Positions 5,559 through 60,483 of a DNA stretch of 64,000 nt are shown here, in pieces; the first letter of the stretch is position 1, and each line of letters starts with the position of its first letter. Below the pieces are notes generated by a model, which was not told the DNA's origin, did not search any database, and worked only from the letters and a program-made list of their open reading frames with translations. Location: NCBI GenBank assembly GCA_028865345.1, contig JAGWKL010000001.1, positions 63,296 through 127,295 on the forward strand, in the 5' to 3' direction. Origin of the DNA: Candidatus Omnitrophota bacterium. GTDB taxonomy: Bacteria > Omnitrophota > Gorgyraeia > Zapsychrales > Fredricksoniimonadaceae. The position numbers and the translations under genes were made by a program.

Positions 5559-7664
5559 TCAGCTGACCTTAGCGACGAAATCCTGACGGGCGCCGATGAT
5601 CTTCTCGGCGATACTGTTGGGAACCTGCGCATAAAACGAAGGTTCCATAGAGAATGATGCACGCCCCTGCGTGAGGGACCGCAGCGCATTCGCGTAGCCA
5701 AACATTTCAGCCAAGGGCGCATCGACAAGGGCGGTCTTCAGTTTCCCGCGGTTGCCGGTTTCCTTGATCTGAGCACGACGTTTCATCAGATCACCGGTGA
5801 CATTGCCCCAGTGCTCATCAGAACATTCAACTTCCAACTTCATGATCGGTTCCATAAACACGGAACCCGCCTTACGGAAGGCATCCTTTATAGCATATTT
5901 TGCCGCCAATTGGAAGGAAATTTCATCAGAGTCCACATCATGATAAGATCCATCCACCAGGGTCGCCACGAAGTCCGTGACCGGATATCCCGCAAGTATA
6001 CCATTTTGCGAGCCCATTTCAATGCCTTCTTTGCAGGGCTTGATGAATTCACGGGGAATGGCGCCCCCCTTGATCTTATCGACGAACACAAATCCCGTGC
6101 CGGGCTCACCGGGCTCGACGTCGATAACCACGTGCCCGTACTTGCCGCGGCCGCCGGACTGCTGGATGTATTTTCCGACGACGCCGGTGACTTTCTTGGT
6201 GATGGCTTCCTTGTAGGCGACTTCCGGCCGGCCGACGTTGCATTCCAGATTGTTCTCGCGCTTCATGCGGTCGACGATGATGTCCAGGTGCAGCTCGCCC
6301 ATCCCGGAGATAATGGTCTGGGAGGTCTCCTGGTCAAATTTAACGCGCAACGACGGGTCTTCATCCAAAAATTTACGCAGCACCACGCCCATCTTGTCCT
6401 GGTCGGCCTTGGTTTTGGGCTCAATGGCCAGGGAAACCACGGCTTCCGGCGGCTTTAGGCCTTCCAGCACCACGGGCTTGTCTTCCAAACAAAGCGTATC
6501 GCCCGACTTGCTTTCTTTCAGGCCGACAAATGCAACGATCTCGCCGGCGGAAGCCGAAGAGATGATCTCCTGCTTGTTGGAGTGCATGATCACCATCTTG
6601 GAGATCTTTTCATTTTTGCCGTTGGAAGAATTCAAATAATTCTGCCCCGGAAGGAAACGGCCGGAATAAACACGGGTGAAGAAAATTTTGCCGACATAGG
6701 GATCGGAAGCGATCTTGAACACCAGCCCTACAGGAGCGGCGGCGGGATCGGCTTTTAAATCAATGCGTTCTTCCTTATTATCAGGATTGTAGCCCTTCAT
6801 GGGGGGAATGTCCAAAGGCGAAGGCAGGAAATCGATAACGGCATCCAAGAGCATCTGCACCCCCCTGTTTTTCTTGGAGGTGCCCGTCAAAACGGGTATG
6901 AATTTACAGGCGATGACGGTGCGGCGGATGGCCTTCATCAGCTGTTCTTTGGTGGGCATCTTGCCTTCGATAAAAAGTTCCATCATTTCATCGTCGACTT
7001 CAGCCAGGCGTTCGATCAGGGTATGGCGATATGCGCCTAAACGTTCCTTGAATTCTTCGGGGACGGGCAGGCGGTCAAATTCCATACCGTCTATGTCCTT
7101 ATATTGGATATACTGCTCGTTAACGATGTCAACCAGGCCTTTAAAATTATCCTCGGCCCCGTCGTTGAACACGACGGCGGCCGCATTGGCGCCGAAACGG
7201 TCATGCATCTCGCCGATGACGCGGTCAAAATTGGCGCCCAGGCGGTCTATCTTATTGATAAACGCGATGCGCGGGACATGGTATTTGTCCGCCTGGCGGT
7301 ATACGGTCTCGGTCTGCGGCTGGACGCCTGAACAGGCGCACAGCACGATAACGGCGCCGTCCAAAACTTTCAGCGAACGCTCGACCTCGATGGTAAAGTC
7401 CACGTGGCCGGGCGTGTCGATGATATTGACGCGGTGGTCCCTCCAAAAACAGGTGGTGGCGGCCGCCGTGATGGTGATCCCGCGCTCCTGCTCCTGGGGC
7501 ATCCAGTCCATGGTGGTGTTGCCGTCATCGATATCGCCCATTTTATGAATGGTGCCGGTATAGTACAAAATACGCTCGGTCGTCGTGGTTTTTCCCGCGT
7601 CGATGTGGGCGATGATACCGATATTGCGAAACATATTTAAAGGGACTGTATTAGCGGAGGCCAT
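5559..7664 (-). CDS. fusA: Elongation factor G
   Basis: 701 aa with NIGIIAHIDAGKTTTTERIL. Confidence 0.97.
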   Translation of the reverse strand: MASANTVPLNMFRNIGIIAHIDAGKTTTTERILYYTGTIHKMGDIDDGNTTMDWMPQEQERGITITAAATTCFWRDHRVNIIDTPGHVDFTIEVERSLKVLDGAVIVLCACSGVQPQTETVYRQADKYHVPRIAFINKIDRLGANFDRVIGEMHDRFGANAAAVVFNDGAEDNFKGLVDIVNEQYIQYKDIDGMEFDRLPVPEEFKERLGAYRHTLIERLAEVDDEMMELFIEGKMPTKEQLMKAIRRTVIACKFIPVLTGTSKKNRGVQMLLDAVIDFLPSPLDIPPMKGYNPDNKEERIDLKADPAAAPVGLVFKIASDPYVGKIFFTRVYSGRFLPGQNYLNSSNGKNEKISKMVIMHSNKQEIISSASAGEIVAFVGLKESKSGDTLCLEDKPVVLEGLKPPEAVVSLAIEPKTKADQDKMGVVLRKFLDEDPSLRVKFDQETSQTIISGMGELHLDIIVDRMKRENNLECNVGRPEVAYKEAITKKVTGVVGKYIQQSGGRGKYGHVVIDVEPGEPGTGFVFVDKIKGGAIPREFIKPCKEGIEMGSQNGILAGYPVTDFVATLVDGSYHDVDSDEISFQLAAKYAIKDAFRKAGSVFMEPIMKLEVECSDEHWGNVTGDLMKRRAQIKETGNRGKLKTALVDAPLAEMFGYANALRSLTQGRASFSMEPSFYAQVPNSIAEKIIGARQDFVAKVS

Positions 7665-12584: not shown

Positions 12585-15500
12585 TTAATCTCCGTGGGTT
12601 CTTCTTGGGTTTCCGGGACTTGCGGCGCTGAGCCTTCCGCTTTTTCCATACGGATGTCCAGGCAAAGCCCCTGCAATTCTTTCACCAAAACGTTGAACGA
12701 TTCCGGGATCCCGGGCGAAAGCGCCTGTTCCCCCTTGACGATCGCCTCATAGATGCGGCTCCTGCCCGTCACGTCGTCGGACTTAACGGTGAGCATCTCC
12801 TGCAGGGTGAAGGCGGCGCCGTAAGCTTCCAGGGCCCAGACTTCCATTTCTCCGAAACGCTGGCCGCCGAAATGGGCCTTTCCGCCCAGCGGCTGCTGGG
12901 TGACCAGGGAATACGGCCCGATGGAACGGGCATGGATCTTCTCGTCCACCAGGTGGTTGAGCTTAAGCATATAAATATAGCCGACCGTGACCTTTTGCTC
13001 AAAAGGCTGGCCTGAATGCCCGTCGAAAACAACGGCCTTGCCGTCCTCGGGAAGGTTGGCCTGCTTCAACAGTCCGCGGATCTCCTGCTCGGTGGCCCCG
13101 TTGAAAACAGGGGTCTCGCAATGGAACCCTAAAACTTTCGCGGCCCAGCCCAAATGCGTTTCCAGAAGCTGGCCCACGTTCATACGCGAAGGCACCCCCA
13201 GCGGGTTGAGGATGACGTCCACGGAACGGCCGTCTTCCAAAAAGGGCATGTCCTCTTCCGGAACGATACGGGAGACTATACCCTTGTTGCCGTGGCGGCC
13301 CGCCATCTTATCGCCGACCTGCAGCTTGCGTTTGGTGGCCACATAAACAACGACACGCTTCAAAACACCGGCCGGAAGCTCATCGCCCCGCCGGATACGG
13401 TCGGTTTCCAGGGTCTCATCCTCGCTCAATTCGGCCAGCTTGTCCGCATAGAAAACCATGATCTCGCGCGCTTCCGAGCCTTCTTCAAGGTCATCCATGG
13501 TCAGTTTGCCGACGCGCTTCTTGTCGATCCCCAAAGACTTGGCGAGCTTCTCGTCCTTTTCCCGGTTGATGATCTCAATCTCCTGGAGATAGTATTCCTT
13601 GATCTTGTTGATGGCCTGGGTTTCCTTGGCCTTGTCCTGTTTGGACTTGCGGCCGCGCTCATTGCGCTGGAAAACTTCCACATTGACCACAAAGCCTTCG
13701 ATGCCCGGCGGCAGCGTCAAAGAGGTGTCGCGGACATCCGCGGCCTTTTCACCGAAGATGGCGCGCAGCAGGCGCTCCTCGGGAGAAAGTTCCTTTTCGC
13801 TTTTGGGCGTGACCTTGCCGACCAGGATGTCGGTGGCCTTGACCTCGGCACCCACCCGCACGATGCCCTCCTCGGTCAAGTCCTTCAGGGACTCTTCAGC
13901 GACGTTGGGGATGTCGCGGGTGATCTCTTCGTTGCCCAGGCGTGTCTCGCGGCATTCGCATTCAAAACGTTCGATATGGATCGAGGTAAACACGTCTTCG
14001 CGCACAATGCGCTCATTGATCAAAATGGCGTCCTCAAAGTTATAACCGCGCCAGGGCATGAACGCAACCAGTACGTTGCGGCCCAGGGCCAAACGCCCTT
14101 CCTGGGTGCCGATGCCGTCCGCGATGGTCTGGCCGGCCTCCACCTTCTGGCCCGGCTTGACCAGCGGCCGCTGGTGCACGCAGGTATTGGCATTGGAACG
14201 CTGAAAATTCTTCAAGGGATAGGATGTTTTGCCGATGACGATCTCGCGGCCGTCAACCTTGCTGACCGTGCCGCCTTCCTGGGCGAGGACCACAACCCCG
14301 GAGTCACGGGCCACTTTTTCTTCCATGCCTGTTCCCACCAGGGGCACTTCCGGGATCATGAGCGGCACCGACTGGCGCTGCATGTTGGAACCCATCAGCG
14401 CGCGGTTGGCGTCGTCGTGCTCCAAAAACGGGATCAGGGCCGCGGCGACGCTGACCAGCTGTTTGGGGGAAACGTCCATGTACTCGACCTTTTCCGGCTT
14501 GACCCTGGGGAAATCCCCTTTGTAACGGCAGGAGACCAGGCTTTCCGTAAATTTGCCATGCTCATCCACCGGCGAGTTGGCCTGGGCGATGTATTTGTTC
14601 TGGTCCACGTCCGCGGTCAGGAACTCATATTTCTTGGAAACTTTGCCGTCGACAACTTTGCGGTACGGCGTTTCGATAAAGCCCAGCTCGTTGACGCGGG
14701 CACAGGTCGTCAAAGAGGCGATGAGGCCGATGTTCGGGCCTTCAGGTGTTTCAATGGGGCACACGCGGCCGTAATGGGTCGGGTGCACGTCGCGCACTTC
14801 GAAACCGGCGCGCTCGCGGCTCAAACCGCCGGGACCCAGGGCCGACATGCGGCGCTTGTGGGTCATTTCGGACAAAGGGTTGACCTGGTCCATGAATTGC
14901 GACAGCTGGCTGCGGGCAAAGAAATCCTGGATCTGGTTGGAGAACAAACGCGAGTTGATCAAATGATGCACGGTCAGGTTCTCAAAAGAGCTCATGACCA
15001 CCAAACGCTCCTTGATGGAACGCTCCAGGCGGGCGAGCCCGATGCGCACCTGGTTCTGGACCAATTCACCGACGGACTTGATGCGGCGGTTGCCCAAATG
15101 GTCGATATCGTCGCATTCGCCGGTGCCTTCACGCAGGGCGACCAGATATTTGATCACCGACACGACGGTCTCGATGTCCAGCACACGGTTGTCCATGGAC
15201 ACATTGGTGGCAAGCTTGCGGTTGACGATGTGCCGGCCGACCTTGGAAAGATCGTAGCGTTTGGGGTCAAAAAACAGCCGGAAGAACAGGGTTTCCGCCA
15301 CTTCCACGGTCGCAGGCTCGGTCGGACGCATTTTTCTGTAGAAATCCAGCAGGGCCTCTTCCTTGTTTGTCGTGTGGTCCTTCTCGAGGGTGTTTTTCAA
15401 CTTGTCAAACACATCGCCCAGCATTTTCTGCATGTCTTCCGACGACGAAAGGCCCATGATACGCAAAATCTGGCTGGCCGGGAAATTGCGGCGGCGGTCC

Positions 15501-31599: not shown

Positions 31600-33015
31600 C
31601 TATGGAGTTGCACTGGCTGCAGAAGAACTCTTGCCTGGCGTGATGATGTGCGGCGTCAGGAAAATGATCACTTCTTTCCTGGTCTTCACCGGGTTGGTGT
31701 TCTTAAATAACCACCCCAGCAAGGGGATGTCCCCCAATAAGGGGATCTTGTTGGTGGTAGTCACCAACTGGTCTGTAATCATGCCCCCGATGACTAAAGT
31801 TTGGCCGTCCTTGATCATCACATTGGTCTCGACCTCTTGATTGCTCGTCTCAGGGAATGGATTGTTCTGAACGGTAATCGTTTGCTGAAGCGTCGAGATC
31901 TGCGGATGCAAATCCAATGTAATAAATCCTGCGTTGTTCACATGCGGTGTCACCTCAAAATTAACACCAATAGGTAATGGGGTAAAACCTGTTACTTGTT
32001 CCTGCCCCGTACTCGAATTAAAAGAATAGTTCGGTACCGGATATTCCAGGCCGATGTTGATCTTGGCCTTTTGGTTGTCCAGCGTCACGATACGCGGGTT
32101 GGAAAGGATTTTGGTCGTGGTACGGGTGCTCAAATATTGCAGGGTCGCCTGAAGCTGGCTGGCATTGATGGTGCCGTACGTAAAGGAACCTGCCGTCGGC
32201 GTCGTGGCCAACGAAGTGCTGGTGGCAGGGAACAGCGCATTACCGGAGCCGCTCGAAGGGACAAAACCTTTCCATGGTTTGTTCGAAAAAGGAAAATACG
32301 TCGGCACGGACCCGCCTGAAATGGTGCTCGTAAAGCCGTTGGTCCAGTCGATCCCCAGGTTCTCGTTATCGCTCAGGTCGGTTTCAACGATCTTGGTTTC
32401 GATCGACACCTCCGGGGTTACCGTGTCAATGGATTTGATGACGCCCCCGATGAGCTCCAAATTACTTTCCAGGTCGCGCACGATGATGGAATTGGTCCGC
32501 GTGTCGTAATTGATGAATCCCCTCCTGCTGACCAGTTTATCGATGATCTTAAGCACGTCCTCGGCTTTGGCATAGTTGAGCGTATAGGTCCTGGACACCA
32601 ACGGCTCCTGGGCCTGCAGAACGGCGGCATTCTCGCGGTATTTCTTCAGATTATCAATGCTCATCACGGTGATGATGTTGCCCTTGCGGTCAAAACCGTA
32701 CCCGTAGGTGGAAAGGATCACATTCAGCGCCCTTTCCCACGGCACGTCCTTGAGTTCGATGTTGACGACCCCGGTCACATCCGGGGCGGCCACGATGTTC
32801 ACCCCGCTTTTAAAGGCCAGCACCTTCAATACGTTCCTGATATCCGCGTCCTGGAAATCCAGGCTGACCAGCCCCCCCTCGGGCGAAAGATCGGCCTGGG
32901 CTGTCCCATGCACGGCGGCAACAGCGGCGGCCGCGGGCCCGTCGGCCCAAATCTTTTGGCCCCAGGTTACGGCCGTCATCAACAGGGTCAGGATAAAAAT
33001 GGCCTTGAACATCAC
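31600..33015 (-). CDS. pilQ: Type IV pilus secretin PilQ
   Basis: Signal peptide, N0/N1 domains, and a C-terminal secretin domain ending ...VIIFLTPHIITP. Confidence 0.85.
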   Translation of the reverse strand: MMFKAIFILTLLMTAVTWGQKIWADGPAAAAVAAVHGTAQADLSPEGGLVSLDFQDADIRNVLKVLAFKSGVNIVAAPDVTGVVNIELKDVPWERALNVILSTYGYGFDRKGNIITVMSIDNLKKYRENAAVLQAQEPLVSRTYTLNYAKAEDVLKIIDKLVSRRGFINYDTRTNSIIVRDLESNLELIGGVIKSIDTVTPEVSIETKIVETDLSDNENLGIDWTNGFTSTISGGSVPTYFPFSNKPWKGFVPSSGSGNALFPATSTSLATTPTAGSFTYGTINASQLQATLQYLSTRTTTKILSNPRIVTLDNQKAKINIGLEYPVPNYSFNSSTGQEQVTGFTPLPIGVNFEVTPHVNNAGFITLDLHPQISTLQQTITVQNNPFPETSNQEVETNVMIKDGQTLVIGGMITDQLVTTTNKIPLLGDIPLLGWLFKNTNPVKTRKEVIIFLTPHIITPGKSSSAASATP

Positions 33016-33356
33016 GTTCCTCCGTTTTTAATTTTCAAAACAAATCTCCGAGGTCCCTTTGAAAACTCCACCTGGTCAAAACTGATGGCCATGACCGTAT
33101 AGGGCCCAAGCTGATCGCCGATCCTGACGACCCTGCCGTTGACGATGGCCATATTGTTCCCGGAGGCGTCCGTCACGATCCCTTCCAGGACCAGGTCATT
33201 CACCGATAAATCTTCATCGTAGGTGACCACCATGCCGGCCGAAGACACTAAAGGTACAAAAGGATCCCGCTTACCGTGATCATCATACACGAAATTCTGT
33301 TGGGCATATACTGAATTCGCTGATAAAAATAGGAACGCCAGGATCAATAGTCTCAT
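33012..33356 (-). CDS. pilP: PilP-like pilus assembly lipoprotein/periplasmic protein
   Basis: Signal peptide, an RDPFVPL motif, a small beta domain, and operon position. Confidence 0.55.
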   Translation of the reverse strand: MRLLILAFLFLSANSVYAQQNFVYDDHGKRDPFVPLVSSAGMVVTYDEDLSVNDLVLEGIVTDASGNNMAIVNGRVVRIGDQLGPYTVMAISFDQVEFSKGPRRFVLKIKNGGT

Positions 33357-33976
33357 AGCTTTTGGGACACCGCCCTGTCCGCCAGAATCAGGTCAATGGT
33401 CAGGGAAAACTCATGGACACGGGGGTCGCTGCCTTCATTTTGAATAATGAAATCCTTGATGATAAAAAAGAGGTTGTCATTTTCCAGCCTGCTCAGGAAA
33501 CGCCCGAAGTTATGGTACCCGCAACGGGCCTTGACCAGGACAGGCAAGGTATAATACTGGGCGCCGGCGGCTTTTGCCAGAGCTTTCTTGCCGTCCCATT
33601 CAGGGTCCAGCTGGTCGATGGCCACCCCGTATTCGTTGGCCACATTGGAAATGGTCCCCAAAATGGCGGAAACGTCCATGGTCGTGCGCACCTTGTCGCT
33701 GAGGGCCGTAAACCGGCCCCGGGTGGCGGCGAGGTCCTTTTTAAGCAGGCCGATCCGAGCATAATCGCTCAAAACCTGCCGGATATTTTCGGAAGTGTCC
33801 TTGATCTGGCTGTTCGTATTGCCTATGGCGCCAAGCTGGGGCATGGCCACAAAGACCGCATCCAACAAAACGATCAGGATGACCGCGACGATCAGCGCCC
33901 CGTAACGGGTCTGCTCGCTTTGCTTATTGAAAGACTCAATGAGGCCTTTAACGTTTTTTATGTTGTTCATGCCCAT
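33353..33976 (-). CDS. pilO: Type IV pilus assembly protein PilO
   Basis: Single TM, coiled coil, and a PilO-like periplasmic domain. Start approximate. Confidence 0.7.
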   Translation of the reverse strand: MGMNNIKNVKGLIESFNKQSEQTRYGALIVAVILIVLLDAVFVAMPQLGAIGNTNSQIKDTSENIRQVLSDYARIGLLKKDLAATRGRFTALSDKVRTTMDVSAILGTISNVANEYGVAIDQLDPEWDGKKALAKAAGAQYYTLPVLVKARCGYHNFGRFLSRLENDNLFFIIKDFIIQNEGSDPRVHEFSLTIDLILADRAVSQKL

Positions 33977-34556
33977 CTTCCAGATTTGCAACGATGGAAA
34001 AATTCGTAACCTCGACGGAATTATCCCGGCTTCCCTGGATGGTATCATTCTCAAGGGAAGAAAACCCCTTCATAAAATTTTTGTCCTTTTTCAGGGAGGA
34101 CACGAACAGGCTGACGGTATTGATCTCATTGCGGGTTTTGGAAACGACGCTGCCCTCAATGGTCAAGCCCGCTTTGTCCAGCGTCATTTTCCTGATCCAC
34201 AGCCCCCGGGGCAGCGCGTCGCTGACGGCATTGAATTTAGGCGCCCAAAGCAGCGATCTATCGACCGTCACGCCGGAAATTGCGCTGATCTTCTTTTTCA
34301 GATCCGCGGTCTCCTTGTGAACGGCGTCCACGGCGGTTTTCTGAAGCGCAATCCTGCGCCACTGTGCATCATAAAAAGACAGCCGCCCCATCCCCGCCAG
34401 CCAGACCGCCCCCAAAAGAAGGTGAACCCCAAGCAAAAGGACAACCACCCCGCCGCCGACGCCCAAAAGCACATCCCTGGGGATGTTGACCGCCCAGGCG
34501 TCCGCCGCCTTGCCGCTTTTTCTTGCCCCTTCCGGAATCAGATTAATGTCAATCAT
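33948..34556 (-). CDS. pilN: Type IV pilus assembly protein PilN
   Basis: MIDINLIPE... N-terminus, single TM, PilN/FimA-like. Confidence 0.75.
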   Translation of the reverse strand: MIDINLIPEGARKSGKAADAWAVNIPRDVLLGVGGGVVVLLLGVHLLLGAVWLAGMGRLSFYDAQWRRIALQKTAVDAVHKETADLKKKISAISGVTVDRSLLWAPKFNAVSDALPRGLWIRKMTLDKAGLTIEGSVVSKTRNEINTVSLFVSSLKKDKNFMKGFSSLENDTIQGSRDNSVEVTNFSIVANLEDGHEQHKKR

Positions 34557-35604
34557 TTGAAAGCCCCAATCCCACGGCCACTCCAAACTGTGCGGCATGG
34601 GCCCGGATGTCGCCCTCCAGGGCCGCCCCTGAAGGCAGGCCGCCCAACGGGTCCCAGATCTTCACCGGCAGCCCCAGGCCTTTTTCAAACACGCCTTCAA
34701 TGCCGCCCAGCGCAGACCCGCCCCCGGCCAGGAAAAGCTCATTGACGCGGGCGTGTTTCTCGGTCGTAAAATAATCGAGGGACAGGCGTATTTCGCTGAT
34801 CAAATTACTGATCGGCACCTCGCAGGCGTCCATGATCTGGGCCAATTTATCCTCCGGCCGGCGCTTGAGCGCCTCTGCCGCTGCGGCATCCAGGCCCAGG
34901 GCATTGGCGATCTTTTGGGTCAACTGGCTGCTGCCGATGAAAACGTCTCTCGTAAAACGCAGCGTTCCGTCCTTAAAGATCATGAGGCTGGCGGCCGACG
35001 CGCCCATGTCCAGCAGGGCCCGGGCGCCGCCCGACGGCGTTGACGCCGGCCCCAGGCGGCCGAACGCGTTGGCGGCCGCAATGGGATTAAGCGTCACGCG
35101 GTTTAATTCCAGGCCCGCTTCTTTAAACAATCTCAACCGTTCGTCCACCATCTCTTTCTTGACCGCGGAGAGCAGAACCGGCATTTTTTTGTCATTGCCT
35201 TCAGGGTCGAGAATGGTGCAATCCGTGTAAATGCTTTTAGGGTCAAAAGGGAAATATTTGTCCAATTCATAGACATAAGATTTTCTCAAGTCTTCCAGGG
35301 ACATGCGGGGAAGGTCGATAAAGCGCATCAGGGTCCCTTTGCCGGATACCGACGAGACCAGAAGCTGGTTGCTCCAATGCAGGCGTTCGACGGCCTTTTT
35401 TAAGGCTGCCGGCGCCCCCTGGGCCTCCAGAGTCTCGACGGCCCAATGGCGTATTTCACTCCCCCCGCCGGCCGCCGGGCCCAATTCCACCGCTTTGACG
35501 GCGGAGGCGCCGATATCAATGCCGATGACTGCAACAGCTGGAGGTTGGGGGATCAAACGATTGACGAACAAAAGATACTGCTCAAATAACTTCTTAAAAT
35601 CCAT
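34549..35604 (-). CDS. pilM: Type IV pilus assembly ATPase-fold protein PilM
   Basis: Actin-like/FtsA fold with VIGIDIGASAVK... 351 aa. Confidence 0.85.
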   Translation of the reverse strand: MDFKKLFEQYLLFVNRLIPQPPAVAVIGIDIGASAVKAVELGPAAGGGSEIRHWAVETLEAQGAPAALKKAVERLHWSNQLLVSSVSGKGTLMRFIDLPRMSLEDLRKSYVYELDKYFPFDPKSIYTDCTILDPEGNDKKMPVLLSAVKKEMVDERLRLFKEAGLELNRVTLNPIAAANAFGRLGPASTPSGGARALLDMGASAASLMIFKDGTLRFTRDVFIGSSQLTQKIANALGLDAAAAEALKRRPEDKLAQIMDACEVPISNLISEIRLSLDYFTTEKHARVNELFLAGGGSALGGIEGVFEKGLGLPVKIWDPLGGLPSGAALEGDIRAHAAQFGVAVGLGLSND

Positions 35605-35752
35605 GTAAATATTTTAACAGATTCCAAAAATGAAAATAGCATTATTCAAATTTTTTTGCCTTGAAACCGGTTTAAAATCCGTTGTAAAGTCCCCGTGAAG
35701 CGGCTTGCGCGCCCGGCCATCTTCAGTTATACTTTGTATACAGATAAAATCC
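35605..35752. promoter_or_regulatory. AT-rich divergent promoter region between pilM (minus) and the Flp-like Cys-rich protein gene (plus)
   Basis: 148-nt AT-rich spacer between divergent start codons. It marks the boundary between the all-minus core block and the accessory locus. Confidence 0.4.
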
Positions 35753-36859
35753 ATGCGTAAAAACGGCCAATCCATCATCGAGTATATCTTGATTGCAATC
35801 CTGGTGATTTTAGCGATTGCATTTATGGGCACCTATGTGCTGCGTTCGGTCAACGCCCATTTCAAAATGTGGGACGAGGGCGTCCGGGATTCCGCCGAAG
35901 AGATCATCAACCAGGCCCCGATCGCCGATGTGCCTAATATTTCATTGAACTGCTCGTGCTCGCAGACCGTGGGGACCTGCGGAAGCAGCACGCCCGGCTC
36001 GCAATGCGCCGCCAATGAGAAAATAATAACCTGGAACTGCAATCCCCAGGGATGCAACGGCGCGCAGGGAAACAGCACCTGCGAACTTGACCCCAGCTGC
36101 TGTAATACGCCTGCACCCCAGGGCTGCGGCAACCATCCTCTTCCTTTCGTTCCTGCGACCAAAGGATATATAGGGACCCCGATGCCATGCCCGACAGGGC
36201 TTTCAGGCACATGTTACCAGGGGCTTGGATCCGGCAGTCCCTGCTATTACGGCCAGCAAACCTACGGCTATGCCTGTGGTTCCAATACCAGCCAGGTCTG
36301 TGTCCCGGACAATTCCTGCCCGAACCCCACATGCACGGGATTTATTCTCTTTTCGAATTCTACCACCTATTGCCCGGGCGCCACCAGCGGCCTGCTTCAA
36401 GACACGCCGAACTACTATGTGGGCAACAATTCTTCGGCTTGTTCAGGCTCTGGAAATTGCGAATTGTATTGTAATGCGCCCTATTCCGTCACCCCGGCGA
36501 ATCCGACCAATCCGACGGAAGCTTCCTGCTCCATGGAATTCAACGTAGCGGCCTCCTGTTGCGGTCCTGATGGTTATGACCCTTCATGCCAGTACAGCAC
36601 CAATAATACAAGCAACCCCACCTGTGCCAATGGCGGATGCTCATGTTGGGCATCCGGCAGCCATCAGATCACTAACAACGAAAGTTTTTCAGTCTGCCTT
36701 GACCCAACCACCAAGCTCTCTTCCGTCTATGCCCTGCCGGTCGGGTCTACGGCGACCAATACCTACAAGAGCCCTGCGTTATCCCCCACCGACGGCGGAT
36801 GCGGAGACCCGGGCCTGCCTTCCCAGACATGCAGCATCTCTGTTAATTTCGGATCGTGA
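35753..36859 (+). CDS. Cysteine-rich (~31 Cys) Ser/Thr/Asn/Gly-rich protein with a Flp-type class III (prepilin) signal peptide
   Basis: N-terminus MRKNGQSIIEYILIAILVILAIAF carries a G/xxxxEY Flp-pilin processing motif with Glu at +5. About ten N-x-S/T sequons. No match to an ordinary pilin length. Confidence 0.6.
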   Translation: MRKNGQSIIEYILIAILVILAIAFMGTYVLRSVNAHFKMWDEGVRDSAEEIINQAPIADVPNISLNCSCSQTVGTCGSSTPGSQCAANEKIITWNCNPQGCNGAQGNSTCELDPSCCNTPAPQGCGNHPLPFVPATKGYIGTPMPCPTGLSGTCYQGLGSGSPCYYGQQTYGYACGSNTSQVCVPDNSCPNPTCTGFILFSNSTTYCPGATSGLLQDTPNYYVGNNSSACSGSGNCELYCNAPYSVTPANPTNPTEASCSMEFNVAASCCGPDGYDPSCQYSTNNTSNPTCANGGCSCWASGSHQITNNESFSVCLDPTTKLSSVYALPVGSTATNTYKSPALSPTDGGCGDPGLPSQTCSISVNFGS

Positions 36860-37920
36860 TGGAGCCCATGAAACACCCCCTTGTCGCCGGCGTTGACGAT
36901 CTTTCATTAGACCAAAGGAAGTTTGATCCATCCCCCCTGGACATCGAACGCATCTGCCGCTTCTTTGGTTTGGGAAAACTCAGGCACTTCGAAAAAGAAA
37001 AAAACATCGTGGTTTCCCATTCCAATTTTTTCGCCTTTGTCCGCACAAACCAGGGGGGCTACGCGCTGAAATTCTACCCGCCGCAGGCGGCCCGGGGCAT
37101 CAGCGTTGAATATGCCCTCAACCGCCTCCTGACCGGGCATCGTTTTGCCACACCTTTAATGCACGCGGGAAAAGACGGCCGTGCCTGGGTTTGCGGCTGC
37201 GGCCGTCTGGCAGCCTGTTATTCTTATATCGACGCAGCGCCGGCATGGCAAAAGATCGGGCAAAAAAAGACCATCCGCGCCATCAATGCCTCGATGTTGT
37301 TGCTGAAGCGTATTTTATCCGCCGCCGGAGAGTCCCTTCCGGTGCAAAAACAGAAAACCTTCGGCGCACAGACCCATGACCTCCTGCGCCTTTCCCGCGA
37401 CCTGCGGCCTTATGACCAACAAGAAACGATCGAGGCCTGCCTCCTGGCGGCCTGCCGCGCCTATCAGCGGCATGAAGGGCTGTTTGTCCGCCGGAGGCTC
37501 CATAACAACGCGGGTTTGACCAACTTTCTCGTCGACAGAAAAACCGTTTACACCCTTGACCTGGGCCACGTGCGGGAAGATTACGCCATAAGCGATCTGG
37601 CCGGCATGGTCATTTCCTGCGTTTTCTTTGACACGCCGCCCCAAACAATCCGGGCCATCATTGAAGACTATTTTGCCCAACATCAAATGACACAGGACAG
37701 CAGCGCGGCCCTTGCCGTACTTGTCCAGACCGGGCTTATCAAAGAATATCTGAAAAACATCCAACGGGAAAAATCACTTGGATCTTCCCTGTATCCGCCC
37801 GGACTTCTGGAAGCCTACAGGTCTCTGCTCGCCGAACGCAAGAAATCCATCAGGACTGTTTTAAAGAAAGGGCTTCTGAAAGGGACGGGGCGCCGGGGAC
37901 GGGAAACAGCGCTGATTTGA
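36859..37920 (+). CDS. Protein kinase-like fold phosphotransferase (APH/ChoK/HSK-II-like)
   Basis: Catalytic-loop-like HNNAGLTNFLVD and a DLG (DFG-like) motif. Start ATG overlaps the upstream stop (TGATG), indicating coupling. Confidence 0.5.
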   Translation: MEPMKHPLVAGVDDLSLDQRKFDPSPLDIERICRFFGLGKLRHFEKEKNIVVSHSNFFAFVRTNQGGYALKFYPPQAARGISVEYALNRLLTGHRFATPLMHAGKDGRAWVCGCGRLAACYSYIDAAPAWQKIGQKKTIRAINASMLLLKRILSAAGESLPVQKQKTFGAQTHDLLRLSRDLRPYDQQETIEACLLAACRAYQRHEGLFVRRRLHNNAGLTNFLVDRKTVYTLDLGHVREDYAISDLAGMVISCVFFDTPPQTIRAIIEDYFAQHQMTQDSSAALAVLVQTGLIKEYLKNIQREKSLGSSLYPPGLLEAYRSLLAERKKSIRTVLKKGLLKGTGRRGRETALI

Positions 37921-38959
37921 GTGTCGAGCGGATCATGGTTGTCATGGGGACTTCCGATAAATAGCTGGGGCACCGGCTGCAGGGAACATCGCTGCCGGGC
38001 TTGATCAATCCCAGCACAGTCATTTTCATGTCCAGGTATCGCTTGCTTTTCATGACCGCTTCAAGCCCGTCCTGGAACACATTGCCCGTATCCCCGAAAT
38101 AATTGGCGCAGCATCCGGTCATTTTCCCGTCCCAGTTGATTTGCGGGGCGGTCCACAACTGATAGCAGGACAAATACAGCGACAGGCCGTATTGATCGCT
38201 GTATTCCTGCCTTGTGGCGCTGTTGGACCCGCTCAGGTAACGGATCAATGCCTTGTTTTTGACCGGCGCATACTCCGTCCTTGAATTGAGCTTGATCTTG
38301 AAGACCATCTTCAGTTCCCGCGCCAAGGTCATGGCCTTCAGCACCACATGTTCATTATGCGCAAACGGGATGAATTGCCACTCCAGTTCAGGCAGGGCGC
38401 TGTCATATTTTTCTTTATAAAAGTTAAGGGTTTTGATGTTGTTGATGACCTGCGTGAAACTCCCCCCCACCCGGTATTTCGCATAGCTCTCTTCATCCCC
38501 TCCGTCGATGGCGACGTTGAGGTAACGGAAACGGTATTTGACCAGGTCTTCGCACATCGCAGGGCTTACCCTGTTGAAATTCACGCCCGAACGGGCGGTC
38601 AGGGTGACCCCTTGCTCGCAGGCGTCCTTGATGATGGCCCCCAGCTCCGGGTTAAGGAATATCTCGCCTGAATGGGACAATTCTATGGTTTTGACCGACG
38701 GGTTGGCGCGGATGAAAGCCGCAAAGTCCTTGGCGCGCAAATATCCCCATCCCAGCACCCCGTTCCTTTTTTCCGGACGGGTGTGGGGGTCGCACACAGG
38801 ACAGGCCAATTGGCAGGCGCTGCAGGCGCTCAATCGGACAAAGGTAGGCGGAACATAGCTTAACAGGTCGGCTTTCGTGATCATCTGATTAAAGTGTAAA
38901 CCATAACGGCGCCCCTGTAAAGCGGCTTTGCTAAAGACGCTTGAAATGGTAAAAACCAT
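37850..38959 (-). CDS. Radical SAM protein (start approximate)
   Basis: CQLACPVC (CX3CX2C) motif plus a C-terminal Cys cluster. The track ORF N-terminal extension overlaps the upstream gene and was discarded. Confidence 0.7.
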   Translation of the reverse strand: MVFTISSVFSKAALQGRRYGLHFNQMITKADLLSYVPPTFVRLSACSACQLACPVCDPHTRPEKRNGVLGWGYLRAKDFAAFIRANPSVKTIELSHSGEIFLNPELGAIIKDACEQGVTLTARSGVNFNRVSPAMCEDLVKYRFRYLNVAIDGGDEESYAKYRVGGSFTQVINNIKTLNFYKEKYDSALPELEWQFIPFAHNEHVVLKAMTLARELKMVFKIKLNSRTEYAPVKNKALIRYLSGSNSATRQEYSDQYGLSLYLSCYQLWTAPQINWDGKMTGCCANYFGDTGNVFQDGLEAVMKSKRYLDMKMTVLGLIKPGSDVPCSRCPSYLSEVPMTTMIRSTLKSALFPVPGAPSLSEALSLKQS

Positions 38960-40403
38960 TTCCCCCGTTTGAAACTTTATAATCCTGAAAGAACCCTTTG
39001 AGTTGAATTCTGGGAGGCAGCTGGATCCCGGAAGGCGGTTGAATTCCGTCAGGCATTTGGTTTTTGTAGACCAAAAATACCGCGTGCACCCGCGGTTTAA
39101 GGAGACCGTTTTGGGCCAGGAACTCCGCCGGGTTTGTCCCCTCCCGTATATTAATGACCCTGCGCGTATCCCCCCTATAATAGTAGCTGAAATCCTGAGG
39201 ATCGGCATAGGACACAATGAGATCGTTGGGACCTGCCGCCCGCATTAATTCTTTTGCGGTCGAGCGCCAGTCCTGCTGGGGAAAGCGGGCGATTCCGGTG
39301 AAATACAAATAAATATTAAAAATGGCGATCATAAGCATCGCCGCCAGCATCACGCTGCGCAAGGGGCCGGAGACGGCGCCCAACCGGCTGCTGATCATCA
39401 GGATAAGCGGCACCTGCAAAAATCCGACATACCGCGCCTCAAGATAAACGTGGACACAGGTATAATCGAACAGAAAATAGGCCAGAAGCGCCACGGCAGC
39501 CCATAAAAAGACGGCCCGGTCATCGGCTCTCCGGGGACTATCAACCAGGAAAAACACCAGCAAAAAGACATATAAAAAACAATTGATCTCCCAGAGCCCC
39601 AGGTGGAAAGAATATTGGGCCCAATTTTCATGCGTCCAAATTTCCAGGCCGCTGCCTATGATGAAGAAAAAAGAGCTTAAAGCAAAATGCAGGTAATCAA
39701 AGGCGGCCGTGGGGCGGATCAGCCCCCAGGTTTCTTTGGGGGAACACAAAAAAAGGACCACCCACGGAATACAAAAACCAAGTATGATGAGCTGCCCGGT
39801 GAACCATGGCCTGCGCCTGGCCCCGGTCAATATAAAAATGATGTTTTGCGCCGCCAGAAACAAAAACCCCGAATACATCGTATAGCAGCATAATATGGAT
39901 GTTGCGATATACCATCGATGCGGGGCCTTCCCCTGATTCCTGAGGAAACGGAAAAAGAACAAAAACGATAACGCCTCCAGCAGCCAGAAGGACGCGTACA
40001 TCTTGGCGTACTGGGCATAATGGACGGCAAACGGCGAGAAAGCCAGCAGCGCCGCGGCGATAAGCCCGGCATTTTTATTAAAAAGTTCCTTGCCCAGTTT
40101 ATAAATGACAATGATGGTCAGGCCGGAAAAAAGCGCCGAAGGAAACCTCAGCGCCCATTCGCTCGTGCCGAAAAGGCGCGTCCATAAATGGAGAAACGCA
40201 TAATAAAGCGGCGGAAACGAGGAAGCTTTCAGCAGGACTACGGTCTCCCAAAAAGAATGATTGATCCTCACCGCGGTGGTCAGCTCATCATCGCCCAGGC
40301 TGGGCGCCCCCAGATGATAAAACCGGAGCGCAAGCCCCGCGGTCAGCAGGGCCGCCATGACCCAAAAATCCCCCGGCATCTTCAAAAACCGCCGTTGCAG
40401 CAT
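38931..40403 (-). CDS. GT-C fold glycosyltransferase, family 39/83-like (PMT_2 / ArnT-like) membrane protein
   Basis: More than 10 TM helices. A first-loop DE motif (GDDELTT) and an FPPLYY block are typical of PMT/ArnT-type lipid-sugar-dependent transferases. Confidence 0.8.
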   Translation of the reverse strand: MLQRRFLKMPGDFWVMAALLTAGLALRFYHLGAPSLGDDELTTAVRINHSFWETVVLLKASSFPPLYYAFLHLWTRLFGTSEWALRFPSALFSGLTIIVIYKLGKELFNKNAGLIAAALLAFSPFAVHYAQYAKMYASFWLLEALSFLFFFRFLRNQGKAPHRWYIATSILCCYTMYSGFLFLAAQNIIFILTGARRRPWFTGQLIILGFCIPWVVLFLCSPKETWGLIRPTAAFDYLHFALSSFFFIIGSGLEIWTHENWAQYSFHLGLWEINCFLYVFLLVFFLVDSPRRADDRAVFLWAAVALLAYFLFDYTCVHVYLEARYVGFLQVPLILMISSRLGAVSGPLRSVMLAAMLMIAIFNIYLYFTGIARFPQQDWRSTAKELMRAAGPNDLIVSYADPQDFSYYYRGDTRRVINIREGTNPAEFLAQNGLLKPRVHAVFLVYKNQMPDGIQPPSGIQLPPRIQLKGFFQDYKVSNGGNGFYHFKRL

Positions 40404-40412
40404 GTCGCCTTT

Positions 40413-41135
40413 CTAATGAAACCTCAACTCCGATACAAAACGGCCCGGATCGATCTTCTTCATAAGCCCCTTCTCCTGTCTCATGGACAACAGAAGAAAG
40501 ACATCCCTGGCCAGCCGGTTGAGCCTTCCCATAAAATGGTAGTGCGTTTTCCCGAATTTTCTTTTCCGGCAGGCGATGTCGACCTCGCAAAGATTGATCT
40601 TTTTTTCCCTGGCCAGCAAAGGCAAAAACCGGAACGCCTCGCCCCTGTCTTTGATATCATTGACGATCTTGGACCGGTAGGCCCTGAAGGAGGAATTGAT
40701 ATCATAATACCCCAACCCGAACAACAGGCAGATCAGCCTCTTGGTGATCTTGCGCCTTTCTTTCTTGCCATTCACCACGTCGTAACCCATGTTGATTTTT
40801 TCCACCAGTTTCAAAATGTCCTGCGGGTCATGTTGGAGATCGCCGTCCATGGTGATGATCACCTCCGAACGGACAAAATTCATCCCGACCAAAAGCCCCA
40901 TGGTCTGGCCGAAATTCTTTTTAAGTTTGACCACATTGACGGACTTGTCCCGCTGGTGGATGGCGCATAACTCCCCATAAGAGTTGTCTTTGCTGCCGTC
41001 TTCCACGAAGATGATTTCATATCCCCCCCGCAGCGATTTCAGGCTGTCTTTCAGGCGCTCATAAAGGATGCCTATGTTCTGCTCTTCGTTGTTGACAGGA
41101 ATGACGATGGACAAATCCATGGCTTTTTGCGTCAC
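40413..41135 (-). CDS. GT2 polyprenyl-phosphate sugar synthase-like glycosyltransferase (DPM1/ArnC/GtrB-like)
   Basis: LSIVIPVNNEE...FVEDGSKD...MDGDLQHDP, the DXD-type GT-A motifs of Dpm1-like enzymes. Confidence 0.8.
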   Translation of the reverse strand: MTQKAMDLSIVIPVNNEEQNIGILYERLKDSLKSLRGGYEIIFVEDGSKDNSYGELCAIHQRDKSVNVVKLKKNFGQTMGLLVGMNFVRSEVIITMDGDLQHDPQDILKLVEKINMGYDVVNGKKERRKITKRLICLLFGLGYYDINSSFRAYRSKIVNDIKDRGEAFRFLPLLAREKKINLCEVDIACRKRKFGKTHYHFMGRLNRLARDVFLLLSMRQEKGLMKKIDPGRFVSELRFH

Positions 41136-59583: not shown

Positions 59584-60483
59584 ATGGCCATGACCGCTTT
59601 GGGGGTGATCATCCTGTGTGTCGGTGTATTAACCACGTTTACCGATCTTAAGAACAAAAAAATATATAATCTCCACTTGGGCCTTGGCGCCCTCATGGGC
59701 CTGCTGGCCGTGGCCTACACAGCTCTCAAAGGCCAGGAACACGTGCTTTTTCATCTTGTCGACGGCGCGGTTGCTTTTGGCGTCGGGTTTCTCCTGCACC
59801 GCTCTTCACTTTGGAAAGGCGGCGACGCCAAACTCTTTGCGCTCTATGCGTTTCTGATGCCGCCGCCGGAATTCAAACTGATCATCTTTCCGCAAGTGAC
59901 GGATCTGTTCGCCTGTTCCTTCATTGCAGGCACCATCCTGCTCATACCTCTTCTTATTAAAAATATTATCATAAATCGCGGGACAATTGCAACCCAGGCC
60001 TTTTCCCCGGCCAAAAGGCGCGGCCTCGGGTCGGCCATGGGGACCTTGATTTTCTATTCCTGGGCGCTGTTTCCCATCTATTACCTGGCCCGGCTTACGA
60101 ACCCCGTGGTCATTCTGTTTATCCTTTATTGCTTCTTCAATTGGGGCTATTCCACCAGGGAAATCAAGAAAGATGAAGTGGCGGCGCACAGAAAAAGATT
60201 TTATCTTGAGCTGTTGATCGTATTTTTGGTCGGGTTTCTCAGCCGCCTTTGGCTGGCGCCGGATTCCCTTGATGGGCCCTCCCTTTTACGCTATGGTCTT
60301 ATGATCGTATTTTCCTGCACCGTGTCTGTCTGCATCCACACCGTCCTGGAGCATGTCAAAGAATACCGTGACCGGGTGCCGTTTGCGCCGTTGCTATTTC
60401 TGGGATGCCTGCTGAGTTATACGCCTTTTTTGACATATCTGACGCGCCTGTTGGTCCGGTGGAACATCTTTTTCTACCGCTGA
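59584..60483 (+). CDS. A24-family type IV prepilin peptidase (TadV/CpaA/FlaK-like, no N-methyltransferase domain evident)
   Basis: Polytopic membrane protein with a GGDAKLFA second catalytic Asp motif and an Asp in the first cytoplasmic loop (FTDLKN). Confidence 0.75.
   Translation: MAMTALGVIILCVGVLTTFTDLKNKKIYNLHLGLGALMGLLAVAYTALKGQEHVLFHLVDGAVAFGVGFLLHRSSLWKGGDAKLFALYAFLMPPPEFKLIIFPQVTDLFACSFIAGTILLIPLLIKNIIINRGTIATQAFSPAKRRGLGSAMGTLIFYSWALFPIYYLARLTNPVVILFILYCFFNWGYSTREIKKDEVAAHRKRFYLELLIVFLVGFLSRLWLAPDSLDGPSLLRYGLMIVFSCTVSVCIHTVLEHVKEYRDRVPFAPLLFLGCLLSYTPFLTYLTRLLVRWNIFFYR

Follow-up and report, generated by a model that had tools for sequence, protein, structure and literature searches.

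A cysteine-rich Omnitrophota protein family with a hybrid class III signal peptide: probable type IV pilins with an unrecognised head

Introduction

What is the role of a 368-residue protein that begins like a prepilin, is crowded with cysteines and matches nothing in the domain databases? We asked this of a gene in a stretch of 64,000 nucleotides from a Candidatus Omnitrophota bacterium (GenBank assembly GCA_028865345.1, contig JAGWKL010000001.1, positions 63,296 to 127,295 of the forward strand), called the window throughout. Omnitrophota have not been cultured; most are ultra-small, and their way of life is thought to be one of dependence or predation on other cells. A first reading of the gene, made from the sequence alone (the sequence-only reading), took its product for a giant Flp-like prepilin, whose cysteine-rich domain might be cross-linked by radical S-adenosylmethionine (SAM) enzymes with SPASM domains, glycosylated, or both.

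Here, we argue that its product is probably a type IV filament subunit, belonging to a new family of pilins restricted to Omnitrophota. What is new about it is most likely the combination, in a type IV pilin, of an atypical signal peptide with a head of unrecognised fold.

Results

The open reading frame and its family

The open reading frame (ORF) was confirmed on the forward strand, from an ATG at 35753 to a stop codon ending at 36859, encoding 368 amino acids (aa). The product begins MRKNGQSIIEYILIAILVILAIAF, with the motif MRKNG/QSIIEY (the slash marks the predicted cleavage site) followed by a hydrophobic helix. The sole upstream in-frame start, a TTG at 35705, falls on the -35 box of an element that resembles a promoter, and homologues of the protein begin M-x-K-x-G; for these two reasons we regard the ATG as a secure start codon. 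The sequence-only reading had the length, the 31 cysteines and the ten N-x-S/T sequons right, and slightly overstated the cysteine share, which is 8.4% and not about 9%. Ser (12.2%), Gly (10.3%), Thr (9.0%), Asn (8.7%) and Pro (8.7%) are the other prominent residues.

A Candidatus Omnitrophica metagenome-assembled genome (MAG) encodes a hypothetical protein of the same sequence (100% identity). Searched at full length against Pfam and NCBIfam it gave no match, and neither database has a model for the family. A profile built from the first 12 homologues retrieved 479 cluster representatives (clustered at 50% identity) at E <= 1e-3, and 328 at E <= 1e-10, with members ranging from 270 to 1162 aa. 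All recovered genome loci come from Omnitrophota or Omnitrophota-like MAGs. A published description of this family was not found in the Omnitrophota papers or the other literature searched.

The class III signal peptide

Conservation within the family peaks in the N-terminal 55 residues. Among 123 representatives with intact N-termini, most leaders have 5-7 aa, with Lys or Arg at -2/-3, and the residue at -1 is Gly (76%) or Ala (24%). Of the mature positions, Gln at +1, Glu at +5 and Gly21 are invariant (100% each), and Ser at +2 (89%), Tyr at +6 (84%), Gly16 (83%), Pro22 (88%), Tyr23 (84%) and Arg26-Ser27 (89%) are each kept in most members; an amphipathic segment, NAHFKLWD..VQDSF.E, comes after Arg26-Ser27. 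The protein thus has the short basic leader, the Gly or Ala at -1, the Glu5 and the ~20 hydrophobic residues of a class III signal peptide, as judged by motif and conservation. In a six-frame translation of the whole window, a small residue separated from a Glu by four residues, with a long uncharged hydrophobic stretch after the Glu, was found at a single site, that of this gene. The G-x4-E-Y motif is not a chance match, since it is kept across the family. This pattern of conservation is what would be expected of a prepilin peptidase site joined to a pilin alpha1 helix, and the signal peptide recognised in the sequence-only reading is real in this sense.

To which kind of pilin does the signal belong? 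Glu5 and Pro22 are hallmarks of type IVa pilins, and Glu5-Tyr6 is a hallmark of Flp pilins. Gln at +1, in turn, is obligatory for processing by the archaeal prepilin peptidase EppA (PMC4390842). With Glu5/Pro22 resembling type IVa pilins, Glu5-Tyr6 resembling Flp pilins and Gln +1 resembling EppA substrates, the signal peptide reads as a hybrid of the three. Flp_Fap (PF04964) is the closest Pfam model to the family, with weak matches in 22 of 101 members (best E = 4.1e-4); the N-terminal 70 aa of our protein score 13.8 bits against it (E = 0.051), below the gathering threshold of 32.2 bits. The archaeal class III model PF04021 matches one member of the 101 (E = 0.024).

Predicted structure of the head

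AlphaFold2 was run for the full-length protein, on an alignment of 101 sequences, and for the head alone. The full-length model (mean predicted local distance difference test, pLDDT, 82.4; predicted template modelling score, pTM, 0.64) consists of one long helix at residues 8-49 (pLDDT > 90), a short linker and a head rich in beta strands. Confidence is high at residues 67-260 and poor at 270-320 and 338-345. The head modelled alone gave pLDDT 82.0 and pTM 0.71. The prediction thus has an extended N-terminal helix of ~42 residues followed by a globular domain; in a pilin, such an alpha1 is expected to span ~50 residues.

The head itself is another matter. A profile search of all Protein Data Bank (PDB) sequences with the family gave nothing at E <= 10, and a Foldseek search of the model against the PDB gave only insignificant matches to sushi repeats (best E 0.95). 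It has no structural match to known pilin heads, which are alpha-beta rolls. The architecture, alpha1 plus head, is thus pilin-like in the model, and the head is not a recognisable pilin head; the earlier statement that it contains no other recognisable domain has held up in Pfam, NCBIfam, PDB-profile and Foldseek searches alike. This leaves a confidently predicted fold without a solved relative.

Towards the C-terminus, other members of the family hold insertions or extra domains (Hint, PA14), and this part of the family is a variable module slot. One member (L004 4006-5625, P0011) ends in a Hint domain, an intein-like autoprocessing domain, and PA14 is found in another.

Cysteines and sequons

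The cysteines of the head are strongly conserved: 21 are present in at least 93% of members, 12 of these being invariant, and C69 and C96 (87-88%) together with C279 (79%) bring the conserved set to 24. These are spaced along the chain as even blocks of 10, 6, 4 and 4. C69 and C96, which lie on successive strands of the AlphaFold2 model, are both present in 88 sequences, both absent from 12 and single in only 1 (r = 0.96). Paired loss of this kind is a signature of disulfides and is not expected of cysteines that donate thioethers to other residues. Because C69 and C96 are lost together and the conserved cysteines fall in even blocks, the pattern points to disulfides rather than thioethers. 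The parity of the total cysteine count (66 representatives even, 57 odd) carries no information on pairing, as many of the entries are fragments.

The loose cysteine repeats suggested earlier were not recovered, as the best self-alignment scored 47, below the 57 +/- 9 of shuffled sequences. The same is true of the sequons as evidence of N-glycosylation: the ten N-x-S/T sites, which include two overlapping pairs, compare with 6.2 expected (P = 0.06), their positions are common to only 5-25% of members, and the protein has no sequon of the bacterial type (D/E-x-N-x-S/T). Their number is explained by composition.

Pilus genes around the gene

Genome loci of the family were pooled from an exact-protein look-up and a scan of GTDB, giving 22 loci (designated L001 and so on), ~18 of them distinct. 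In the window, the gene is divergent from a pilM-pilN-pilO-pilP-like-pilQ cluster (31600-35604, reverse strand; Table 1), and this divergent arrangement recurs in 12 of the ~18 distinct loci. In one lineage (L004, L010, L015 and L022) the gene stands between pilMNOPQ and a convergent operon, which encodes, as far as the contigs reach, a coiled-coil protein, PilC, an MshEN protein, PilB, PilB and an MshEN protein. The same coiled-coil/pilC/pilB operon lies 3' of the gene in L018, whose contig starts at the gene, bringing to five the loci with pilB and pilC downstream. L011 and L016 have pilMNOPQ and the coiled-coil gene before the contig ends, and in L003 the gene is preceded by two T2SSE-family ATPase genes, ~1 kb upstream of it, and then by an MS-channel gene. 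L009 carries two tandem paralogues of the gene.

Members of the family are the only class-III-like ORFs in the window and in all 22 loci. Tad genes (TadV, RcpA/CpaC, TadZ, TadA, TadB/C, TadE/F) were seen neither in the window nor in any locus examined. Type IVa pilus genes are common, indeed near-universal, in Omnitrophota (PMC10066038).

Table 1. Coordinates of the pilin-like gene's parts and of the features around it, as positions in the window
Feature	Position	Strand	Remarks
pilQ secretin	31600-33015	-	Secretin, 6e-49
pilP-like	33012-33356	-	gene between pilO and pilQ
pilO	33353-34054	-	PilO Pfam match
pilN	33948-34598	-	PilN below cut-off, 21.6 vs 22.8 bits
pilM	34549-35604	-	PilM_2, 8e-36
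Conserved sigma-70-like promoter element (putative)	35705-35733	+	TTGCGC 35705-35710, 17-nt spacer, TATACT 35728-35733; ~20 nt 5' of the ATG
Predicted leader peptide MRKNG, class III signal peptide	35753-35767	+	cleavage predicted after Gly5, from motif and conservation
Predicted pilin alpha1 helix, residues 6-49	35768-35899	+	Q1, S2, E5, Y6; hydrophobic alpha1N; G16; G21-P22-Y23; amphipathic LRSVNAHFKMWDEGVRDSAEE
Linker, residues 50-66	35900-35950	+	conserved QAP...VP motif
Cysteine- and beta-rich head core, residues 67-260	35951-36532	+	20 conserved cysteines
Variable C-terminal region, residues 261-368 and stop	36533-36859	+	low model confidence
APH-fold (kinase-like) gene	36856-37920	+	PF01636, E = 1.6e-9; start overlaps the stop of the pilin-like gene by 4 nt
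Radical SAM and sugar-modification island	37850-62721	mixed	between the pilin-like gene and the A24 peptidase, which ends it; ~25 kb
GT-C glycosyltransferase, PMT_2/ArnT-like	38931-40403	-	PMT_2, 5.9e-19
Polyprenyl-phosphate sugar synthase-like GT2	40413-41135	-	ArnC-like, 9e-35
A24 aspartic prepilin peptidase, candidate processing enzyme	59584-60483	+	PF01478, E = 1.6e-6; without methyltransferase domain

Three side observations concern individual loci. A protein of 248-268 aa with only the C-terminal half of a Secretin domain is encoded near the gene in L013 (8241-8987), L017 (8240-9046) and L021 (7887-8654), between RsmB-like methyltransferase and Amidase_3 genes (Pfam check in L013 only). 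In L009, which comes from a long-contig MAG, pilQ appears split into at least four ORF fragments (5780-7160), probably through frameshift errors of the assembly and not as a real pseudogene. L004 has a gene for an HTTM protein with a DCC1-like thiol-disulfide oxidoreductase domain (14182-15417), separated from the pilB operon by one FtsW/RodA gene; a link to oxidative folding of the cysteine-rich protein is possible.

A candidate peptidase and a radical SAM/sugar island

The candidate processing enzyme in the window is an A24 peptidase with both catalytic Asp motifs (TDLKNKKIYN and GGDAKL), which had no match when compared with solved structures. Homologues of it lie near the gene in L001 and L013 as well, and the co-occurrence with A24 peptidase and SPASM radical SAM genes raised by the sequence-only reading is seen in all three places.

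Between gene and peptidase extends an island with at least 11 radical SAM genes; five have a SPASM domain, and several look like genes for B12-dependent radical SAM enzymes. Its sugar genes encode a DegT aminotransferase (closest to the LegC/PseC family models, below their cut-offs), an ArnC-like family 2 glycosyltransferase (GT2), a PMT_2 glycosyltransferase of the GT-C type, YdjC and DUF2334 deacetylases, a PP-loop amidotransferase and a GT28-like protein. A PaaK-like ligase, a reductase, a methyltransferase, a flavin halogenase-like protein and a weakly QhpG/LodB-like flavoprotein are also present. No member of the island reaches an NCBIfam cut-off, and none of its radical SAM proteins reaches any peptide-maturase cut-off; the top maturase scores are 83 bits for PapB (cut-off 340) and 61 bits for CcpM, where maturase cut-offs span 340-900 bits.

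Downstream of the gene, parts of the island recur in L001, L003, L006, L009, L012 and L013, in the last of these without pilMNOPQ nearby. The island is absent from L004, L010, L015, L018 and L022, in which pilus genes flank the gene. A functional link between island and gene is uncertain. Within the island, the adjacent GT-C and GT2 genes are a candidate pair for periplasmic glycosylation, with the link to the pilin-like protein drawn from adjacency; this is plausible because the head is rich in Ser and Thr and the island is dominated by sugar enzymes. A PMT_2 protein is encoded near the gene in L003 too. We think that the pilin is probably glycosylated; if so, the family could tie a large radical SAM/sugar island to the modification of a pilin.

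One ORF of the island merits a comment on its start. With its listed TTG start, the SPASM radical SAM ORF at 37850-39217 shares 287 nt with the 3' end of the PMT_2 gene. Its real start is probably well downstream, as no Pfam domain starts before residue 133 and only ~57-71% of the ORF is covered by alignments with orthologues.

Discussion

What kind of pilin?

If the gene encodes a type IV pilin, as we think probable, its life might run as follows. The preprotein would be inserted in the inner membrane by its class III signal peptide, leaving the head in the periplasm, and the A24 peptidase would cut after Gly5. Since that enzyme has no methyltransferase domain, Gln1 would be left unmethylated, and might cyclise to pyroglutamate. 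The ~310-residue head would fold oxidatively around ~12 or more disulfides, and its Ser and Thr residues would probably be O-glycosylated by the neighbouring GT-C and GT2 enzymes, the sugar coming from the radical SAM/aminotransferase island. The ~45-residue alpha1, with Glu5 and Gly21-Pro22, would then let a PilB/PilC motor and PilMNOPQ polymerise the pilin and pass it through the secretin. The expected function would be attachment of ultra-small, probably host-dependent cells; the PA14 and Hint modules of some members fit surface display.

Among known systems, type IVa pilins (PilA/PilE) offer close parallels. They share with the family the short basic leader, the small residue at -1, Glu5, the hydrophobic alpha1N, the Gly/Pro kink at 21-22, an alpha1 of ~45-50 residues followed by a disulfide-containing head (predicted in the family), and linkage to PilMNOPQ, PilB and PilC. 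Unlike them, the family has Gln and not Phe at +1, no N_methyl signature, a linked peptidase without a methyltransferase domain, and a head of ~310 aa with ~12 or more putative disulfides and no structural match to pilin heads. Archaeal EppA-type pilins (PF04021) share the invariant Gln +1, Glu +5, the short leader and a non-methylating A24 peptidase; the family differs from them in its setting, a bacterial diderm one with secretin and PilMNOP, and in matching PF04021 only in the single member noted above.

We regard a structural (major) pilin as the most likely role, because the gene is the only pilin-like one in near-complete pilus clusters, its Glu5 is invariant and it has its own conserved promoter-like element. 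A minor or tip-located modular pilin with an adhesive head is a close and serious alternative, on account of the large head and the variable C-terminal modules (PA14, Hint). Modular pilins are widespread; the survey that described them defined them by the N_methyl signature IPR012902, and modelling puts them at the pilus tip (PMC8179133). Here, the alpha1 module and a bulky cysteine-rich adhesive module would cap a filament of a canonical major pilin encoded elsewhere, a reading that we consider possible, if on the unlikely side.

Several observations suit it. Modular pilins (S. sanguinis PilB/PilC, CofB, GspK; PMC8179133) likewise join a pilin N-terminus by a short linker to a bulky non-pilin module that is likely displayed on the filament, as adhesion-type PA14 domains would be in some members of this family, and the sizes of 270-1162 aa, variable C-terminus and occasional PA14/Hint resemble those tip-placed proteins. 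The head is also far larger than those of known major pilins, and some Omnitrophota are reported to have predicted conductive pilins, which are short and canonical (Seymour et al., PMC10066038). However, the family has no N_methyl signature, and its head directly follows alpha1 in the AlphaFold2 model, with no separate small pilin head module between them. It also appears to be the only pilin at its loci, no other pilin gene having been found in the pilus loci examined, and it occurs as two tandem paralogues in L009. Finally, tip subunits such as GspK typically lack Glu5, which is invariant in this family.

Could the protein instead be an uncleaved, N-terminally anchored protein of the inner membrane or periplasm, such as a PilMNOPQ accessory factor or a bindosome-like surface protein? 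By itself, the alpha1N segment could act as a signal anchor, the head lacks a pilin-like fold, and archaeal sugar-binding proteins have class III signal peptides without forming long filaments (PMC3047682). Against this, the invariant Gly/Ala at -1, Gln1 and Glu5 and the conserved Gly21-Pro22 fit recognition by a peptidase and packing in a filament, not a plain anchor, and the A24 peptidase is genetically linked in three lineages. We consider this reading improbable.

The same holds, perhaps a little more firmly, for the proposal that the protein is a substrate of the neighbouring radical SAM/SPASM enzymes, which would install thioethers or other cysteine cross-links before export and yield a protein-sized product akin to QhpC or to a ribosomally synthesised and post-translationally modified peptide. 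It draws on the radical SAM-rich island that follows the gene in the window and six further loci (including L013, away from pilMNOPQ), on the two radical SAM proteins nearest to the peptide maturases PapB and CcpM, and on the QhpG/LodB-like flavoprotein. Yet the maturase scores are far under their cut-offs, the island's wealth of sugar enzymes is a better fit to glycan synthesis, and the island is missing from five loci. The cysteines disappear in pairs, and the blocks in which they are conserved hold even numbers, as for disulfides; a membrane-inserted head targeted by the Sec/signal recognition particle route would be unexposed to cytoplasmic enzymes after insertion. The thioether idea of the sequence-only reading is thus disfavoured.

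Its other central idea, a giant Flp pilin of the Tad (type IVc) kind, cut by a TadV-like peptidase and built into a filament by a Tad machine, has least to commend it and seems very improbable: the family does share with Flp/Fap pilins the G/xxxxEY motif, a weak Flp_Fap similarity and an A24 peptidase without methyltransferase domain, like TadV/CpaA, and Tad systems exist in Omnitrophota (PMC10066038), but the Flp_Fap scores stay below threshold, no tad genes were seen and the neighbours are PilM_2/PilN/PilO/Secretin-STN, PilB with MshEN and PilC, the leader of 5-7 aa and Gly21-Pro22 are type IVa-like, and the family's members, with a globular head, are 5-20 times larger. Flp pilins are 50-80 aa long and have no globular head.

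Some of our own results weigh against a type IV pilin. N_methyl (PF07963 / IPR012902) gave no match in our protein or in any of the 101 members at E <= 0.1, and the Flp_Fap match of the protein is, as stated, below threshold. In L013, L017 and L021 the gene is not beside pilMNOPQ. At ~33 kDa, the head has about double the size of the heads of known major pilins, making its packing in a filament body and its passage through the secretin uncertain. Canonical pilins may be encoded elsewhere in the genome, as the contig is 306 kb long and the window covers 64 kb of it. A gene for a cytoplasmic kinase-like protein is co-transcribed with the pilin-like gene (Table 1). The case for glycosylation is weakened in that the PMT_2 protein of L003 is no close homologue of the one in the window. 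Cleavage and polymerisation of the protein are predictions from its sequence and gene neighbourhood.

A bolder version of the proposal can be offered tentatively: that type IVa-like pili of Omnitrophota are built wholly of this family, with a disulfide-knotted head of 30-120 kDa and unrecognised fold in each repeating unit, a hybrid signal peptide, a non-methylating peptidase and an unusual glycan made by a dedicated island of more than ten radical SAM enzymes. If true, this would add a class to the known type 4 filaments, one by which ultra-small bacteria attach to their hosts or prey.

Even the more modest reading, a pilus subunit of whatever rank, would have consequences. The family comprises 479 clusters without a database model and is invisible to the N_methyl/IPR012902 signature; because it lacks this signature, pilin censuses and the published modular-pilin survey (PMC8179133) passed it over. 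As a pilus subunit, it would mark the surface structure most likely to contact hosts, and would show that signal-peptide features held to be diagnostic of Flp, type IVa and archaeal pilins can be combined in one protein.

Upstream region and the adjoining APH-fold gene

The promoter-like element upstream of the gene has core bases, CTTGC and TATACTTT, that are invariant in all eight of the orthologous pilM-to-gene intergenic regions compared (8/8), and its function as a promoter is inferred from this conservation. A scan for consensus promoters did not report the TTGCGC-17 nt-TATACT site, which is below the scanner's match threshold. A consensus scan for intrinsic terminators found none 3' of the gene. 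Codon adaptation relative to rpoBC and the genes for L1, L10 and S1, taken as a proxy for expression, gave no signal, as the ribosomal genes were themselves not distinct.

The same intergenic region contains a second conserved block at 35605-35660, consisting of ATTTTAACAGATT and a downstream T-run, which is nearly invariant in eight loci. As it adjoins the start of pilM, it could be the pilM promoter, its 5' untranslated region or the site of a regulator.

A GTGA overlap couples translation of the APH-fold gene to that of the pilin-like gene. The APH-fold gene is found directly 3' of the pilin-like gene in the window, L003, L009 and L020, with two copies in L009, after the two paralogues. The Brenner motif HxDxxxxN reads H-N-N-A-G-L-T-N, with Asn in place of the catalytic Asp, in four of five orthologues; the protein may be a pseudokinase.

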